From contig OY762463.1 in assembly GCA_963665815.1 (NCBI GenBank), positions 2,720,001-2,784,000 of the forward strand: DNA of 64,000 bases, read 5' to 3'. Positions 9,158 to 24,167 of this stretch are shown here, one piece after another; position 1 is the first letter of the stretch; each line of letters starts with the position of its first letter. This DNA comes from Candidatus Cloacimonadales bacterium (GTDB lineage: Bacteria > Cloacimonadota > Cloacimonadia > Cloacimonadales > JAIOQZ01). The position numbers and the translations under genes were made by a program. The notes under the pieces are model-generated. The model saw nothing but the letters and a program-made list of their open reading frames with translations. It did no database searches and was not told the origin of the DNA.

Positions 9158-12100
9158 ATGAAACTAAAAAACATTCGTATCAGCATCAAGCTTCTTGTTG
9201 TCAGTCTCGTGCTGGTCGTCGCATCATTATTGATCTTAGGTTTTGTTAACCTGAAGCTTACCAGGGATAGCGTTTACGATCTTGTTGAATCCTCGTTGAA
9301 CGAACAGACGCAAACGGCAATGACATTGGCCAAGCATGGTCTGAATGCTGCATCAGTATCACTTGAAAAGAGTATTGACATGCTTAACAAGCTTGTGAAT
9401 GCACAAGGTGGATTTCAGATTAACACGAAAGCTGAAGTAAATGTGCGAGCTGTTAACCAGGTTACCAGAAAAGCATCTGATATTTCAATCCCAAGGATGC
9501 AGATTAACAAGCAACAGGTGTATAGAAATTACGATATAGTTGATGAAGTAAGAACGCTGAACAATGTCAGTGCAACAATTTTCCAGATTATTCCGGACGG
9601 TATGCTTCGCATATCAACCAATGTGGTTAAGGATAATCAGGAAAGGGCTGTAGACACATATATACCGACAGATTCACCAGTGTACAAAACCATAATGGAA
9701 GGAAAAACATATTCCGGTATTGCTACGATACTTGGAAAACCATACTTCACAATATACAGTCCTGTTAAAGATAATCAGAATCGAATTATCGGTGCATTAT
9801 ATGCAGGTAATCCTGTAAATTCTGCAATGATTGCAACAATTGAAATGGTTAATTCAGCCAAAGTAGGAAAAACAGGTTACATGTACATCATGGATAGTGA
9901 TGGAGTTCTATTACAGCATCCAACAAGTATTGGAAAGAGCATCCTTTCACATGATTTCACAAAGGAAATGGTGGAAAAGAAAAACGGAGTTATCGTTTAC
10001 GAATGGGAGGGACGTGACAAGATTACCTCATATAAGTATAACGAAGATCTCGACTGGATTATAGCTTCAGGTTCATACTTCGAAGATTACACCAGCATTC
10101 TTGGTAAAATTGGTGGAGCGATCATTATTGCGATCATTATTGCTTCTATTGTTGCATTAATTATGATGATGCTCTTGAGTCGACACATTAATACCGGTGT
10201 ACTGGACATCGTATCTCAAGTTTCTACACTCACTGAAAGTGTACAACTTGGTAAACTGGACCTTCGAGGTGAACCGGAAGAGACTTTTATAGATTTCCGG
10301 TCTATCATTTCAGGAATTAATGGTGTTATTGATGTGTTTGTAGAACCTATAAATCTTACTGCAGAGTATGTTGATAGAATCAGTAAGGGCGATCTTCCTC
10401 CAAAGATTACCGATACATATCATGGAGATTTTAATGAGATTAAAAATAATTTAAATCAGTGTATAGATGTTATCTCTGAATTGTTGAAAGAGACAGAGAG
10501 AATGATTGATTCTGCAAAACAAGGTCAGCTTGATCAACGTGGTGATGCAGATGCATATCAACATGGCTGGAAGGACCTGGTACGTGGTATTAACGAACTG
10601 GTTGATACTTTTGTTGCACCTATTAATCTTACTGCAGAGTATGTGGATCGTATCAGTAAGGGTGATCTACCTCCTAAAATTACTGAAACCTATTATGGTG
10701 ATTTCAATGAAATAAAAAACAATTTGAATCAGTGTATAGACGTGCTTAATAGTTTTGTGACTGATATGAAATATATGAGTGATCAACAGGATGAAGGGGA
10801 TATTGACGTATTTATGCCTGCTGAAAACTATTTCGGGGCATACAATGTGATGGCGCAAGGATCAAACGAAATGGTGAAATCCCACATTAATGCTGTTCTT
10901 GATATGATCCGTATCATTGGGGCCTTTGGAAATGGTGAATTCGATGTTCAAATGGACCAATACCCGGGTAAAAAACAGATTATAAATAACAGTGTAGAAG
11001 CAGTGCGTGCAAACCTGAAAAGCGTTAATGCTCAAGTACAGGAACTTATTGATGCAGTCAGGGAAGGAAAACTGGATATCCGTGGTGATGCAGAAAAATA
11101 TAAAGGTGACTGGAACAGGATGTTCTCAGGTTTAAATGAATTAGTAGACTCATTCGTAGCTCCTATCAATTTTACCGCAGAATATGTTGATCGCATCAGT
11201 AAAGGTAATCTACCGCCAAAGATTACTGATGTTTATTATGGTGACTTCAATGAAATTAAACATAACTTTAATCAGTTGATTGACGTATTAAATGATTTTA
11301 TCACTGACATGAAAAATATGAGTGATGAGCATGATGCTGGAGATATTGATATTGTTATGCCGGCCTCCAAGTATGACGGTGCATATCGACAAATGGCTCA
11401 GGGTGTAAATAATATGGTTGATGGTCACATAAGTATTATCAAGAAGGCAATGGCTTGTGTCAAAGCTTTTGGTGAAGGTAATTTTGATGCTTCAATCGAG
11501 CAATTTCCGGGTAAGAAAGCATTCATCAACGATATTATCGAAGCTGTTCGTTCAAACCTGAAGGGTATCAGTGAACAAGTTCAGGATCAGATAGATGCTG
11601 CTAAACAAGGTGACCTGAAAGACAGGGCTGATGTAGACGAATTCAGTGGTGGCTGGAAGGATATGGTGGCAGGCATCAACGATCTTCTCGACGCGATTGT
11701 CACACCAATAAATGAAGTAATGCATGTTATGGCGAGATTAGCCGACAAGGAATTAAGTGTACGAGTTTCCGGTAATTACAAAGGTGACCTGAACGAGTTT
11801 AAGCAGAATGTAAACAATGCAGCAGACAATCTGGATGATGCACTCAGTCAGGTTGATGCCGCAGTAGATCAGATTGGCAGTGCTGCTGAACAAATAGGTA
11901 GTGGTGGTCAGAGTCTGGCAGAGGGCACATCCGAGATGGCTAGTAGTCTTGAGGAGATTGCCAGCAGTCTGGAAGAGGTGAACAGTTTGACAGTTAATAA
12001 TGCAGATAATGCGAAAGCTGGTTTAAACTTGAGCAATCAGGTATTGATTAACGTTTCTAAAGGAAACGATGCCATGGGTTCAATGACAGAAGCAATGAAC

Positions 12101-12739
12101 AGTATCAGCAAGTCAGCTGAGGAAACAGGCAAAATTATCAAGACTATTGATGAGATAGCTTTCCAAACCAACCTGCTCGCACTGAATGCAGCAGTTGAGG
12201 CTGCTCACGCCGGTGAAGCAGGCAAAGGATTTGCTGTTGTGGCTGAAGAGGTGAAGAATCTTGCATTACGCAGTGCTGAGGCTGCTAAGAATACAAGTGA
12301 ACTCATTGCCGGCTCATTGAAGAACAGCGAGGTTGGAAGCAAGATTGTGCAACAGGTGACTGAATCATTCGATGAAATTCGCACAAGCTTTGAAAAGGTA
12401 AACAGTATAGTAAATGAAATCAGTGCATCGAGTGATGAGCAAGCCCAGGGTATAGGTCAAGTAAATACAGCAATTAACGAATTGAACAAGCTCACTCAAC
12501 GCAATGCAGCTAATGCTGAGGAATCAGCGAGTGCTGCAGAGGAACTGAATAGTCAGAGTGCTGAATTGGGCAATATGGTAGCCAAATTTACTCTGTCAAA
12601 GACAATGTCTTCAAAACGGCATAAACCGGGAAAAGATCGTCGTCAGCAAATGCAGATAACTGATAGACCGAAAGATTTATATGAAGTAGATCCCCGGGAG
12701 CAGTTACCTCTTGATGATGATGAATTTGGTGATTTCTAA
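9158..12739 (+). CDS. Methyl-accepting chemotaxis protein with Cache sensor and poly-HAMP array
   Basis: 2 TM helices around Cache domains ([10 protein letters not shown]); repeated HAMP blocks; signalling tip [33 protein letters not shown]. Confidence 0.95.
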
Positions 12740-19365: not shown

Positions 19366-19501
19366 TTGCAAATGAATACTACACTATCCCAATCCCCTTG
19401 CAAGTAATCACAGAAACTTTGCAATGGTGGACTTGAATGGTTCTAAAAGCTGTTATAGGAGTGCATTGATTGTGTCAATGCGAAGTCGACATAGTCGATT
19501 T
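19366..19501 (+). repeat. Structured intergenic repeat, copy A (paired arms, insert, double hairpin)
   Basis: 19421-19485 matches 24103-24167 at 58/65; collinear with the reverse copy 53816-53896. Confidence 0.85.
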
Positions 19502-19567
19502 GCTCCGATATTTAAGCCAACCCTACGATTGTCTCTACGCGGTGTATGAACAGCAGAGAGTTTTCAG

Positions 19568-19595
19568 ATGTAGAGACGTTGCATGCAACGTCTAA
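19568..19595 (+). repeat. GTAG-type REP palindrome, left flank of NLR-like gene
   Basis: ATGTAGAGACGTTGCATGCAACGTCTAA, the exact reverse complement of 23942-23969. Confidence 0.88.
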
Positions 19596-19695
19596 ATATA
19601 CTCCCTGAAGGAGGTTAATTGCATTTAAGCGAGCTCAAGTCTTTCCAAACTTCGTTTGTAACAACTCAAGTTCACGCATAGATTTTTCACCATGA

Positions 19696-22600
19696 TTATT
19701 GTTCCCTACTTTCCTGCTCCATATTATTTGTAACCTGCTCAAACAACTGCCACAGGGGTTCCTCTATAGAATCCTTTATCTCTATGGCAGGTGTACCATT
19801 TGCATAATTTATAAGAAACTGTGAAAACTGTTTTATCTCTGCCATTTCCTGTGGGATGCCTGCATGTATCTGCTGCAGTTGCTCCAATTTTTCTGCTCTA
19901 TCCACAGCCATAACAGGCATACTGGCAACACTATGCGCCATTTGTATCAATTGTACAAGTTGTTGTGTAAGATTATTTTGATTATTATCTTCTTCCTTGT
20001 AATTCGATACAATATGCTGCTCAATTTCCTCATAATCCAATCCCATTTTATCTGTAACTTTTCTTAGAAGTTCTATGCCTGTTTTCATTAAGAGATTAAC
20101 GCAATTATTGGCTACAATTTTTGCATTGGGTGATCTTAGATTAACAAAAATAAAGATAGCTTTAAGGTAATATTCCAATGCTTTTTCCGGTTGACCGATA
20201 TCATCAAAAATATTACCCATGTTGCCATAGGAGTTTGCCTGCCCCAGCAAATTTCCAATTTGTATTTTCAAATCTAAAGACTTTTTATGATATTCCAATG
20301 CTTTTTCCGGTTGACCGGTATCATCAAAAATATTACCCATGTTGCCATATTGATTCGCCTGTCCCTGCAGGTTTCCGAGTTTAACATTTATTTCAAGTGC
20401 TTTCTCATAATGTTCCAATGCCTTCTGAGGTTCACCTGTTCGATAGTAGATGCTTCCCATGTTGCCATAATCATCAGCCATTCCTCTAATATTTCCAAGT
20501 TTTTCATCTATCTCTAATGCTTTGCTATGATATTCCAATGCTTTCTGAGGTTGACCTGTATCAGCAAAAATCAAACCCATGTTGCCATATTGATTTGCCT
20601 GCCCCTGCAGATTTCCAAGACTGACATTTATTTCAAGTGCTTTCTCATAATACTCCAATGCTTTCTGAGGTTCACCTGTTCGATAGTAGATGCTTCCCAT
20701 GTTGCCATATAGAGTAGCCTGTCCCTGTAGATTTCCAAGCTTAGCATTTATTTCAAGTGCTTTCTCATAATATTCCAATGCTTTCTGAGGTTCACCAGTA
20801 TCAGCATAAATCAAACCCATGTTGCCATATTGAGCAGCCTGTCCTTGCAAATTTCCGAGCTTAACATTTATTTCAAGTGCTTTCTCATAATATTCCAATG
20901 CTTTCTGAGGTTCACCAGTATCAGCATAAATCAAACCCATGTTGCCATATTGAGCAGCCTGTCCCTGTAGATTTCCTAGGCTGATATTTATTTCAAGTGC
21001 TTTCTCAAAATATTCCAATGCTTTTCCCGGTTGACCGGTACGATAGTAGACGCTTCCTATGTTGCCATATTGGTTTGCCTGTCCCTGCAGGTTTCCGAGC
21101 TTAACATTTATATCAAGTGCTTTCTCATAATATTCCAATGCTTTCAGAGGTTCTCCTGTATTGAAATAAATATTACCCATGTTGCCATAGGAATTTGCCT
21201 GTCCCTGCAGATTTCCGAGCTTAACATTAATTTCAAGTGTTTTCTCATAATATTCCAATGCTTTCTGAGGTTCTCCTGTAACTAAATAAATAATGCCCAA
21301 TCTATTCATAACTTCAGCTCTGTATTCTTCCGAGATATTGGTTTCTAAGGATTCAAGATTCAGGTTTCTGGCAAACTCAACATACCCCCAAATTATCAAT
21401 TGGTCTTCAACAGACAAAGCTACTTCAACAGCCTTATCAAATTCCTCTGCAAGTAAATAGTGTGTTCTGACTGCAAGGTGATTATCAACAGTTCTGTTAT
21501 TCTCAAAAACAATATTGCAATACTCCGCAGCTTTTATGTTAAGCTGTTTAAACTCTAATTTTTTCATTGTATCATAGAAGAATTCTGCAGTGAGTCTATG
21601 GGTATAGAAAAGGTGTTTCTCATTTTCTCTTATGTGCACAACAAGGGAAAGGTTCAAGAGCTTTTCCATTAAATCCAATTCAAAATCTCCAATCAGGTGT
21701 GCAATTCCATCTGTTTCTACCGGGCTTTTGTATATGGAAAGTGCTTTTAATATGCGGTTCTGTTCTTCAGTCAGCAGGTTAGTTAGTTCCTGCAAAACAA
21801 ATGGAGCAAATTCTTCTTTACTGCCTGTTCTTAGTTTTGCTTTCAGTTTGTTAATTATCTTGTGGAACTTCTTTTTCTCAATCTCAAAGAGTTTAGTAAA
21901 TCTGCTTTCTCCGGGGAGCAGAGCATCCAGCAGATCAAGTGCACGCGGATTTTTCCCCACAGTCTTATAAATCTCTCTTAAATTCTTCTCATTCAACTGC
22001 TGCAAATTGTTACAGAAATACATTCTTTTATTAATATCGGTATCAGTATATTCCGGTACTTCTATAATGTGGTTTTCAAATTCCGGAACATTGTAGCGAG
22101 TGGACACCAGCAGAATGGATTTTTTACCATTAAACAGCCTTTCAATTATCTTGAGCAGTCCATAAGCCTCATCATGCACTTTGCAATCATCCTGCAGGTT
22201 CTGGTTATCTTCAAAGTTATCAAAAACAATTGTCCAGTTATGTTCATGCATATACTGATTATACAGATAAGTCAGCTTCTCTTTTGCATTGTTAAGCTTA
22301 GAGAGTTCATCTTCCATTTTTTTCGCTTCAGTATCATAAGTTTTGGCAATTTGCAGACAGAGCTTTTCCATAAAACCTGCCTGAGTTAACGGTCCCTGGA
22401 ATTCAATGATCTTATAGTTGTCTCTGGCACAGAACGAGAGTATTCTCGCTGTCAGAGTAGATTTTCCTATTCCTCCCGGACCTTTCAGGATCACCATTGG
22501 ATCGTGCTTTTTTACTCGGAAAATAATCTCCCGAATCTGTATACGCCTGCCGATAAACCCACGCGGTACTGTATTAGTCGTAAAAGTCTTTTTAGAAGCT

Positions 22601-23823
22601 GAAGATTCACCTTCTATTCTATGCTGAGAGAAATCTTTTCTGGAGATACCGGTTTCGGATGAGAAAAGTTCAGGGATATCAACTTCGGTTTTGTTTTGTC
22701 TTTTTTTATTGCTTTCCCATCTGGCAATAGCTTCTTTACCTGCTGAGAACGCTTCGGAAATAGTTTTGTCTTCTATAAGTGCATGGAATAATCCTATATT
22801 AAAAATCATGGAAGCATCATGTGAAATAGATTGTTTCATACCTATTACATAAGGGATACCGGATTTATGCAGTGTTTCTGCAATACTGAGATAAACCCCT
22901 TTTTCGTTTGCTTTGGCAGAATGGCAGGAGGACAGTATCACCAGTTTCAGGTCAACACCATCGGTTTTCAGTTTCTCCAGTTCCTGTGCCAGCTCTTCTC
23001 CTGATACAAATTTCTTTTCTACCGTATTATCCTCTGTAAGCTGTTCGAACAGGAGAAATGTTTTGCCGTCTTTGTCTTTTGTGCCATGGGCAGTAATCTG
23101 CAGAATATCGTGTTTACCGTTTTTCAGGTAGCCAGCCATATCATAGAGGGTAGAGTTAACCATATCGGGTATATCGAGGAACAGATCTGCCTGAGAGAAA
23201 TCACTGAGAGAGTCCAGCATAACCTGTTGTTCTTTCTCGTAGAAGATGTCGGAGTCCGGAGGACTGGCAGTAACCGAGAGGATTTTGATTTGGGGTGGGG
23301 TGGGTATAGCAGGGATGGAGTCTTCAACTAATTCTCGTATTCTACTCACAATGTCGTCATCTATTTCTTTCTTGCTATCCAGCTTATTCATTATTTGCAG
23401 TAAGAGATTTATCACAACTGCTATACTATTGCTGTCCTCAAGATACTTTATGTAATACTCTTTTAACTCCTCTATTCTATTATCCAAATCATTTATACTT
23501 ATCAGACTGTTTATAACATCAGGCATATGATCAAGTTTTCTGAGGTAATTAGATAATTCTGTTGTTGAGACTTGCAGACGTTCAATCTGTCTGCCTACCT
23601 CATATATATCCCATAAAAAATTTTGATCCTCCATAGTATACATAACAGATTTGAATGGAAACTCGAAAGCTTTTTCAAAGGCTTTCATATAAACAGCTAC
23701 TTTGTCAAGTGAGGCCTTGTTAAGTCCTGTTTGAATTGAATCTGCATATTTCTTAATATCGTTTACACTTACACCAAATATACTTGCTAAGCCTGCAGCA
23801 ATATCGAAAATAATCTTTGCCAT
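19696..23823 (-). CDS. NLR-like protein: N-terminal helical module + CHAT (caspase-like) protease + STAND/NB-ARC ATPase + TPR array
   Basis: CHAT dyad ITAHG / LSSCHS; FIGR, Walker A GPGGIGKST, Walker B IVFDNFE, GKNPRAL, YTHRL; ten 40-aa TPRs; AGGAGGTG RBS before ATG at 23823. Confidence 0.88.
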   Translation of the reverse strand: MAKIIFDIAAGLASIFGVSVNDIKKYADSIQTGLNKASLDKVAVYMKAFEKAFEFPFKSVMYTMEDQNFLWDIYEVGRQIERLQVSTTELSNYLRKLDHMPDVINSLISINDLDNRIEELKEYYIKYLEDSNSIAVVINLLLQIMNKLDSKKEIDDDIVSRIRELVEDSIPAIPTPPQIKILSVTASPPDSDIFYEKEQQVMLDSLSDFSQADLFLDIPDMVNSTLYDMAGYLKNGKHDILQITAHGTKDKDGKTFLLFEQLTEDNTVEKKFVSGEELAQELEKLKTDGVDLKLVILSSCHSAKANEKGVYLSIAETLHKSGIPYVIGMKQSISHDASMIFNIGLFHALIEDKTISEAFSAGKEAIARWESNKKRQNKTEVDIPELFSSETGISRKDFSQHRIEGESSASKKTFTTNTVPRGFIGRRIQIREIIFRVKKHDPMVILKGPGGIGKSTLTARILSFCARDNYKIIEFQGPLTQAGFMEKLCLQIAKTYDTEAKKMEDELSKLNNAKEKLTYLYNQYMHEHNWTIVFDNFEDNQNLQDDCKVHDEAYGLLKIIERLFNGKKSILLVSTRYNVPEFENHIIEVPEYTDTDINKRMYFCNNLQQLNEKNLREIYKTVGKNPRALDLLDALLPGESRFTKLFEIEKKKFHKIINKLKAKLRTGSKEEFAPFVLQELTNLLTEEQNRILKALSIYKSPVETDGIAHLIGDFELDLMEKLLNLSLVVHIRENEKHLFYTHRLTAEFFYDTMKKLEFKQLNIKAAEYCNIVFENNRTVDNHLAVRTHYLLAEEFDKAVEVALSVEDQLIIWGYVEFARNLNLESLETNISEEYRAEVMNRLGIIYLVTGEPQKALEYYEKTLEINVKLGNLQGQANSYGNMGNIYFNTGEPLKALEYYEKALDINVKLGNLQGQANQYGNIGSVYYRTGQPGKALEYFEKALEINISLGNLQGQAAQYGNMGLIYADTGEPQKALEYYEKALEINVKLGNLQGQAAQYGNMGLIYADTGEPQKALEYYEKALEINAKLGNLQGQATLYGNMGSIYYRTGEPQKALEYYEKALEINVSLGNLQGQANQYGNMGLIFADTGQPQKALEYHSKALEIDEKLGNIRGMADDYGNMGSIYYRTGEPQKALEHYEKALEINVKLGNLQGQANQYGNMGNIFDDTGQPEKALEYHKKSLDLKIQIGNLLGQANSYGNMGNIFDDIGQPEKALEYYLKAIFIFVNLRSPNAKIVANNCVNLLMKTGIELLRKVTDKMGLDYEEIEQHIVSNYKEEDNNQNNLTQQLVQLIQMAHSVASMPVMAVDRAEKLEQLQQIHAGIPQEMAEIKQFSQFLINYANGTPAIEIKDSIEEPLWQLFEQVTNNMEQESREQ
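20138..21320 (-). repeat. Intragenic tandem array of about ten 120-bp TPR-coding repeats
   Basis: GTTGCCATA recurs at 20221, 20341 and every 120 nt to 21181; 20745-20844 is identical to 20865-20964. Confidence 0.97.
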
Positions 23824-23941
23824 CTTCACCTCCTGAGAGTTGGTCAATTGCTGGCAGAAATTGAGAAAAAGGTCAATTCATTTTTTTGTGCTACGTTACA
23901 ACTACACCGGGGAAATCCGTAATATATTAAATTTTGTTTAC

Positions 23942-23969
23942 TTAGACGTTGCATGCAACGTCTCTACAT
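23942..23969 (-). repeat. GTAG-type REP palindrome, right flank
   Basis: TTAGACGTTGCATGCAACGTCTCTACAT; degenerate third copy at 24196-24219. Confidence 0.88.
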
Positions 23970-24010
23970 AGCGATGTGAAACATCGCTGTGCGTTGTTGA
24001 TTAAATGACC

Positions 24011-24167
24011 TTGCGAATGGTACTTAGACCCGTAGATGTTTTCGAAGAAATACATCCAGAATTGACGTAGATGTTTTCGAAGAAACACATCCAGTGAAGT
24101 TCGCAATGGTGGGCTTTAATGGTTCTAAGGGCTGTTTTGGGAGTGCATTGACTGTGTCAATGCGAAG
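24011..24167 (+). repeat. Structured intergenic repeat, copy B, containing a tandem 29-bp hairpin duplication
   Basis: Arms TTGCGAA (24011) / TTCGCAA (24100); CGTAGATGTTTTCGAAGAAA(T/C)ACATCCAG at 24031 and 24066. Confidence 0.85.

Follow-up and report, generated by a model that had tools for sequence, protein, structure and literature searches.

A gene encoding a predicted solitary NLR-like protein was analysed in a stretch of 64,000 nucleotides from the genome of a Candidatus Cloacimonadales bacterium (assembly GCA_963665815.1, contig OY762463.1, positions 2,720,001 to 2,784,000; hereafter the window, whose own numbering is used throughout). The gene lies on the minus strand, and its product joins a CHAT (caspase-like) protease domain, a P-loop NTPase of the STAND type and ten tetratricopeptide repeat (TPR) units of 40 residues. 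The repeat array is probably the ligand-sensing arm of this protein, with a scaffold that is held fixed, a groove lining that varies and units that have been reshuffled. An earlier note, made from the letters of the window alone, had described near-identical TPR units with shuffled hypervariable positions and had read them as a recombination-diversified ligand-binding surface. Its observation is partly confirmed by the present analysis, and its interpretation, right in outline, is partly supported.

As judged from domain matches, the combination of effector, STAND NTPase and repeats is the layout of an NLR-like receptor: an N-terminal effector, a P-loop NTPase between effector and repeats, and C-terminal TPRs are all present. 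The Pfam match to CHAT covers aa 242-376 with 50 bits against a cut-off of 24, and in an alignment of 39 sequences (the gene and 38 homologues) at least 90% keep the dyad His254/Cys308. An AlphaFold model of aa 1-430 had a mean predicted local distance difference test (pLDDT) score of 71, rising to 80-98 in the CHAT part, which in a structure search matched SAVED-CHAT (8tl0, E 6.5e-11), Csx29, MALT1 and caspases. The P-loop NTPase was located by Pfam at approximately aa 430-600, with a Walker A motif (G..GGxGKST) at about aa 455 that is invariant across the 39 sequences. AAA_22 scored above its cut-off (28.8 versus 27 bits), and nSTAND1 (26.7 versus 27.1), AAA_16 (25.7 versus 32.6) and NACHT (20.1 versus 26.7) scored below theirs; homologues bear precomputed NB-ARC, nSTAND1 or NACHT matches in this region. 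On the array, Pfam reported TPR_12 (E 3.7e-77) and TPR_1 (E 1.1e-82), and the TPR similarities found by NCBIfam on the protein were all sub-threshold.

The array is in frame with the open reading frame of the gene, which stays open across all ten units. Tandem Repeats Finder gave a period of 120, 9.4 copies, 79% matches and a score of 1153 at 20168-21299, and a second repeat search returned nine copies at exactly 120-nt spacing. Among units 2-10, the full ones, identity averages 75.8% in DNA (range 59-93%, 36 pairs) and 71.7% in protein (range 50-95%), exceeding 85% in a single one of the 36 protein pairs. The 120-nt TPR units of the earlier note are therefore real, but near-identity is too strong a term for them; the array falls short of the identity of more than 85%, over at least 100 aa, by which Dyrka 2014 defines highly internally conserved (HIC) repeats, and has the appearance of a HIC array that has aged. 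The framework GNLQGQAxxYGNMGxxxxxTGxPxKALEY, reported as nearly fixed, held up well: 15 of the 40 unit columns are invariant, and each named residue occurs in 7-9 of the nine units. The contents of the two variable slots (NS/NQ/AQ/AQ/TL/NQ/DD/NQ/NS and NIYFN/SVYYR/LIYAD/LIYAD/SIYYR/LIFAD/SIYYR/NIFDD/NIFDD) were reproduced letter for letter, together with their pairings, SxYYR occurring with NQ, TL and DD, and NIFDD with NQ and NS. Both slots are indeed variable, but variation is not confined to them, since columns 2, 3, 28, 34 and 35 vary too. Likewise, the 100 bp said to be identical between adjacent units were found for units 4 and 5 and for no other pair; this tract is the sole long identical run in the array, the next in-register exact runs being of 47, 33 and 33 nt. 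Units three apart (2/5, 3/6 and 4/7, window 21228-20509) are 84-85% identical, above most adjacent pairs; the figure falls to 71-77% for the remaining pairs at this offset, and Tandem Repeats Finder gives a period of 360 nt as well, a weak hint of a single duplication of a three-unit block.

An AlphaFold2 model of aa 780-1383, built from the single sequence, reached a mean pLDDT of 84.3, with the array blocks at 88-97. The modelled array is a regular helix-turn-helix solenoid in which helix A spans columns 7-23 and helix B starts at column 27 and ends at column 4 of the unit that follows. Its best matches among solved structures in Foldseek were the 40-residue TPRs of LGN/GPSM2/Pins (6hc2, 3sf4 and 4wne), with template modelling (TM) scores of 0.75-0.85 on the target, and designed consensus TPRs were also among the best matches; GPSM2 was matched by the array sequence as well (phmmer, E 1.9e-29). 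Alignment to consensus TPR proteins (E 1.4e-86) equated unit column p with canonical TPR position p-10, six extra residues being inserted behind position 34, so that slot columns 12, 13, 19, 22 and 23 correspond to TPR positions 2, 3, 9, 12 and 13, in helix A. According to Magliery & Regan (PMC1261162), positions 2, 5, 9, 12, 13, 33 and 34 are the most variable and all lie on the concave face, and the ligand contacts of HOP involve positions 2, 5, 6, 9, 12 and 13. Helix geometry would place columns 12, 16, 19 and 23 on one helical face, within about 60 degrees. By this alignment and the published concave set, the variable slots would line the TPR groove, on the concave face of helix A, where the earlier note had expected them.

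The units read as mosaics of each other, built by duplication and short-tract conversion. Forty of 120 sites are parsimony-informative, 356 of the 780 pairs of such sites are incompatible, and neighbouring sites were more compatible than in any of 5000 permutations (pairwise homoplasy index, PHI, test on all sites). When synonymous markers only were used (13 codon columns), 24 of 78 pairs were incompatible. Comparison of segments gave a clearer picture. Of the 19 differences in 120 nt between units 6 and 8, none falls within the 36 middle nt, where 5.6 were expected (P 0.0003). The middle segment has one of the 29 differences between units 9 and 10, against 8.6 expected (0 of 20000 draws), and the left 39 nt have three of the 27 differences between units 3 and 9, against 10.5 expected (P 0.0001). 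These three comparisons pass the Bonferroni bound for 108 possible pair-segment tests. The shared cassettes are identical by descent, because linked synonymous codons travel with them. Exchange among the units is mostly old, and only units 4 and 5 appear recent.

Selection was assessed by Nei-Gojobori counting over all 36 pairs of units 2-10. At the five slot codons (12, 13, 19, 22 and 23) the proportions of non-synonymous and synonymous differences (pN and pS) were 0.543 and 0.492, giving a ratio of the corresponding rates (dN/dS) of 1.21, whereas at the remaining 35 codons pN was 0.128, pS 0.472 and dN/dS 0.19. The slots thus evolve at least neutrally and the scaffold is strongly constrained. 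The high synonymous divergence between units (pS about 0.45) makes them old and implies that purifying selection keeps the framework fixed, in place of the steady homogenisation of fungal HIC repeats; this is the main correction to the picture given in the earlier note.

A protein search returned 141 relatives, and the family counts given here rest on the best 120 of them. Most have the same CHAT-NTPase-TPR layout, some with an N-terminal TIR domain, and the source labels of several are Aminicenantes or Acidobacteriota. At least four in-register 40-residue units were detected in 83 of 118 proteins with a hidden Markov model of the unit, and mean within-array identity in the family ranges from 0.10 to 0.88, the present array standing at 0.66 over its ten units. 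Nine of these ten have their nearest unit within their own protein (0.68-0.95), compared with 0.48-0.60 for the nearest among 563 units of 81 other proteins, which indicates that the array arose by lineage-specific amplification of a single type of unit. In 94% of the 33 other proteins that have five or more units at a mean identity of 0.5 or higher, column 12 ranks among the eight most variable columns; the share is 91% for columns 1 and 23, 76% for column 19 and 64% for column 22. Combinations of helix-A residues at columns 19, 22 and 23 recur across many family members, for instance N with YL, and M with QD, QY or EE, which suggests a limited alphabet of unit types.

Comparisons between close relatives showed where the family changes fastest. 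The closest homologue (P0003) is 57% identical overall and has eight units versus ten here; by region, identity is highest in CHAT (87%), followed by the NTPase region (77%) and the tail (68%), and drops to 46% in the array and 22% in the N-terminal module. The N-terminal module is exchanged between close relatives (P0003, P0007 and P0011 were compared), and TIR occupies this place in other homologues. Where two family members share 90% identity or more over the 650-aa core, unit number differs in all eight pairs and array identity is always lower than core identity; at 85% core identity or more, unit number differs in 24 of 27 pairs and array identity is lower in 26 of 27, the pairs being non-independent and some proteins possibly truncated. 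Hence the protease-NTPase core of the family changes far more slowly than the number of units and the residues of the groove. A 25% identical homologue with the same CHAT-NTPase-TPR layout was found in another genome of the same order (locus L012 of G036, L012:3571-4170). Its five 120-nt units are 87-98% identical in DNA, and 14 of the 18 sites that vary lie in nonsynonymous codons; codon 12 is either ACT or CAA, which differ at all three bases, codon 22 is either GCT or GAT, and all four combinations occur. This homologue is the slot-shuffling model of the earlier note in clean form. A search of the genome contigs for relatives of the whole protein confirmed none of 23 pattern matches.

Several observations weigh against reading the array as a diversified sensor. 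The all-site PHI result is open to inflation by multi-nucleotide codon differences and by convergent selection, and with synonymous markers the spatial PHI signal was non-significant (P 0.46, 0.59 and 0.20). The segment tests comprised seven combinations picked after inspection, of which four fail the Bonferroni bound (P 0.04-0.27). The slot dN/dS of 1.2, calculated on five codons, is indistinguishable from 1 or from relaxed constraint, so that the check on per-position dN/dS separates slots from scaffold without separating the slots from neutrality; and a synonymous divergence of about 0.45 between units makes most exchanges old. Exposure of the slots in the groove rests on alignment and helix geometry. 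No second allele of the gene was found (one member in its database cluster, one sample), and the contigs of that sample hold no array variant, which does not demonstrate invariance, as rare variants are lost. The neighbours of the gene in the window (a chemoreceptor, type IX secretion cargo proteins, MgsA/RarA and metabolic genes) do not form a defence island, and PADLOC returned only generic TPR, C3a156 and a weak SAVED_CHAT match (E 6.3e-5), with no Avs model. A recombination-diversified ligand-binding surface finds support in the placement of the array, at the sensor position of NLR-like proteins, in the groove slots, in the mosaic units and in the relatives, and not in the age of the units or in the slot dN/dS.

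Much of this would also be expected if an amplified TPR solenoid had simply drifted at its exposed positions, the cassettes being leftovers of duplication with no selection for specificity. Such drift is compatible with the slot dN/dS, the old units, the non-significant synonymous PHI signal and the absence of variation in the only sample. It accounts poorly for the finding that the same four helix-A columns are among the most variable in 64-94% of the 33 family members while convex-face columns are not, for the differences in unit number in eight of eight pairs with cores at least 90% identical, for the three-nucleotide codon swap of L012, seen in all four combinations with the second slot in units 87-98% identical, and for the segment discordance that survives multiple-test correction in three pairs; overall we consider it unlikely. 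Alternatively, the protein could be a MalT/AfsR-like signalling STAND ATPase with a protease output, whose groove holds one endogenous peptide, each unit contacting another residue, in an array that is stable in the species. Old and individually distinct units, a housekeeping setting with no match to a defence-system model, the binding of defined cellular peptides by LGN-type TPRs and the similarity to regulatory TPR proteins in NCBIfam, sub-threshold only, would all suit a fixed ligand of this kind. This is nevertheless quite unlikely, given that the gene is lacking in a same-genus genome, that P0003 carries a wholly different array and N-terminal module on a 77-87% identical core, that unit number is fluid in the family and that CHAT-STAND-repeat architectures have been described as conflict systems.

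Two further explanations concern the origin of the unit pattern itself. The number or order of units, or the identical tract, might stem from misassembly: the 100-nt tract is longer than the word size used for short reads, and short contigs break inside the array. Against this, the genome is one closed contig of 3.96 Mb; independent contigs of three sequencing runs, all of one sample that is possibly the source of the assembly, show no difference from the window over 19571-20348, 20440-20692 and 20935-24036, stretches that take in unit junctions; the reading frame is uninterrupted across the ten units; and the differences between units are codon-structured. An artefact is accordingly very unlikely. 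Only this sample holds the DNA, and its contigs contain no variant or joint inside the array, within the limits of short contigs from which rare variants are dropped and in which unit number is not verifiable. A fourth run, labelled as this species, contains hardly any of the words of the stretch, with spurious short cover, and is uninformative on absence. As for the unit-number variants that the earlier note proposed to look for, relatives with close cores do differ; contigs are unable to show such variants, so the lack of joints inside the array is no evidence of invariance. As to mutation of the slots by a diversity-generating retroelement, some variable codons are AAY, and STAND sensors diversified in this way have been published (PMC10907252); RVT_1, the reverse transcriptase family, gave no match in the closed genome (98.66% complete), control genomes gave matches, and variation extends beyond adenine-templated positions, all of which leaves this mechanism a negligible probability.

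The pattern itself is known from fungal and bacterial receptors, and the idea of diversification through repeats is not new for bacteria. Dyrka 2014 (PMC4986451) reports fungal NLRs with HIC TPR, ANK and WD repeats, polymorphism in repeat number, and polymorphic and positively selected sites on the concave TPR face. The present protein is like these fungal receptors, for example Pa_2_10340 of Podospora anserina, in having an NTPase followed by TPRs, a constant scaffold and concave-face variation; repeat number is variable in the fungal proteins, where reshuffling has been proposed as the diversifying process. It differs from them in its CHAT protease effector and bacterial host, in being known from one allele, and in the divergence of its units (mean 72% in protein, pS about 0.45), the fungal repeats being kept at more than 85% identity by ongoing concerted evolution. 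In bacteria, the Dyrka 2020 preprint (10.1101/2020.01.06.895854) describes NLRs with WD or TPR repeats that are 80-90% internally identical and might diversify as in fungi, citing Marold 2015 and Hu 2017 on this point. Those proteins (NB-ARC/TPR and NACHT/WD) share with ours a STAND module, TPRs and internally conserved repeats; the cases given there come from Actinobacteria, Cyanobacteria and Chloroflexi and have amyloid/Bell partners, whereas here the CHAT effector is fused, the units are more diverged and the NTPase class scores below cut-offs.

Other likenesses concern the activation logic, the fold and the effector. As in Avs proteins, effector, STAND NTPase and a TPR-like sensor are combined in one solitary gene, and a common activation logic is assumed. 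A 2026 survey (PMC13581612) finds the majority of Avs sensors to be TPR-like, but those characterised are irregular helical repeats that envelop a folded phage protein, in contrast to the regular 40-residue solenoid with a peptide-type groove predicted here. In the complexes of LGN, extended peptides lie in the inner groove and helix-A Asn residues bind the peptide backbone (PMC3438535). LGN/GPSM2/Pins is a polarity protein of eukaryotes that has eight non-identical repeats but neither NTPase nor protease; the likeness to it is one of TPR period, fold and predicted binding mode, and no family kinship is meant. With SAVED-CHAT (8tl0) and the TPR-CHAT protein Csx29 of type III-E CRISPR (8eex) the protein shares a caspase-like fold, a His/Cys dyad and a coupled sensor, but those proteases are triggered by cyclic oligoadenylate or an RNA-guided complex, and the present CHAT domain is in one chain with a STAND NTPase, on its upstream side. 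Bacterial conflict systems with caspase, STAND and repeat modules are treated by Kaur et al. 2020.

We infer a sensor function, a ligand, a protease substrate and an immune role for the protein along the following lines. An extended peptide or protein segment, either from an invader or from a host protein under guard, would bind in the groove, and its binding would release the NTPase switch, whereupon the NLR-like protein would oligomerise and its CHAT protease would be activated, and this activation may lead to a response of the abortive-infection type. Reshuffling of units would be the source of new specificities. In a bolder and unlikely form of this scheme, the array would be a modular peptide reader, with a helix-A alphabet of three cassette types at columns 19, 22 and 23 and a freely assorting slot at columns 12-13; each unit would read one or two residues of the peptide, cassettes would be exchanged across short invariant blocks, and cassette types would recur in the family.

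The features of the gene and its flanks are collected in Table 1. The true start of the gene is likely the ATG at 23823, eight codons past the TTG; the database copy (P0002) starts at this ATG and has 1375 aa. For the N-terminal 190 and the C-terminal 150 residues, Pfam searches with E up to 10 gave chance-level family matches only, and a protein atlas held no usable match for the N-terminal region. The N-terminal module opens with a hydrophobic, glycine-containing helix.

Table 1. Positions of the gene, its parts and the flanking repeats in the window
Feature	Position	Strand	Remarks
Whole gene	19696-23847	minus	Open reading frame, 1383 aa from TTG
N-terminal region, ~aa 1-180	23308-23847	minus	All-helical prediction, low confidence
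CHAT (caspase-like) protease domain, aa 181-425	22573-23307	minus	PF12770, E 3.8e-13
P-loop STAND-type NTPase and helical region, aa 426-833	21349-22572	minus	Walker A GPGGIGKST
TPR array, ten 40-aa (120-nt) units	20149-21348	minus	aa 834-1233
Unit 1, degenerate	21348-21229	minus	aa 834-873
Units 2-10, full	21228-20149	minus	aa 874-1233; slots at unit columns 12-13 and 19, 22-23
100-nt tract in unit 4	20865-20964	minus	Identical to 20745-20844
Partner copy of 100-nt tract, unit 5 into unit 6	20745-20844	minus	Exact match to 20865-20964
C-terminal helical domain, aa 1234-1383	19699-20148	minus	Without family match
65-nt dispersed repeat, downstream of gene	19421-19485	plus	89% identical direct repeat of 24103-24167
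65-nt dispersed repeat, upstream of gene	24103-24167	plus	Conservation with same-genus genome resumes nearby

The gene is accessory and lies at a break of synteny. It has no close paralogue in its own genome and is lacking in a genome of the same genus (G001; loci L022-L024, L028 and L029, contig 13, 892102-920009), in which the flanks are kept at 82% and 93% identity; between these flanks, G001 has 21.7 kb of other genes versus 6.1 kb here. The G001 interval includes an IS/rve transposase, C5-epimerase-like genes, an aldehyde ferredoxin oxidoreductase and glycolytic genes; the idea that it is a defence island was rejected, as an insertion sequence (IS) transposase and metabolic genes were found in it and no defence genes. 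Both intergenic flanks of the gene contain short dispersed repeats (19421-19485 and 24103-24167, and also 19489-19569 and 24016-24135) with many other copies in the genome, among them one palindromic element and the 65-nt direct pair on either side of the gene, and contig depth rises 5- to 8-fold at 23791-24107. In all three runs a contig joins 24168 to 19692 with seven other letters between, which would be a form without the whole gene and its upstream spacer. Its depth is 8.1, 11.3 and 5.7, compared with 11-14 for the gene; the junction is not in the assembled genome, where both of its sides are single-copy, and the depth of the flanks lacks the rise expected from a co-existing gene-less strain. 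The junction contig may derive from a related organism.

The open reading frames adjoining the gene encode a CarboxypepD_reg protein and MgsA/RarA. Of 19 neighbouring open reading frames, five were without any Pfam match and none matched a gasdermin family, and neither CRISPR or CBASS genes nor a Bell-type neighbour were seen nearby. The chemoreceptor of the window, of 1193 aa (9158-12739, plus strand), combines a Cache_3-Cache_2 sensor with HAMP_N3 domains and four or more HAMP_2 domains in tandem, a long poly-HAMP array.

No new principle is established by these results. They provide a worked example of a known pattern of bacterial NLR-like receptors, in which a constant scaffold and a variable groove lining go together with quick turnover of units and exchange of segments, and they show this pattern in two states within one order, a near-identical, shuffling array in L012 and an older array under purifying selection in the gene of the window. 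The family of CHAT, STAND NTPase and 40-residue TPRs is large in metagenomes and, to our knowledge, has no characterised member. It is a reasonable target for the discovery of sensor-ligand pairs and a source of natural, regular peptide-binding scaffolds. Should its arrays prove to be modular readers of peptides, the family would amount to a recognition code, natural and rewritable, that serves immunity in bacteria beyond the classical multicellular lineages.

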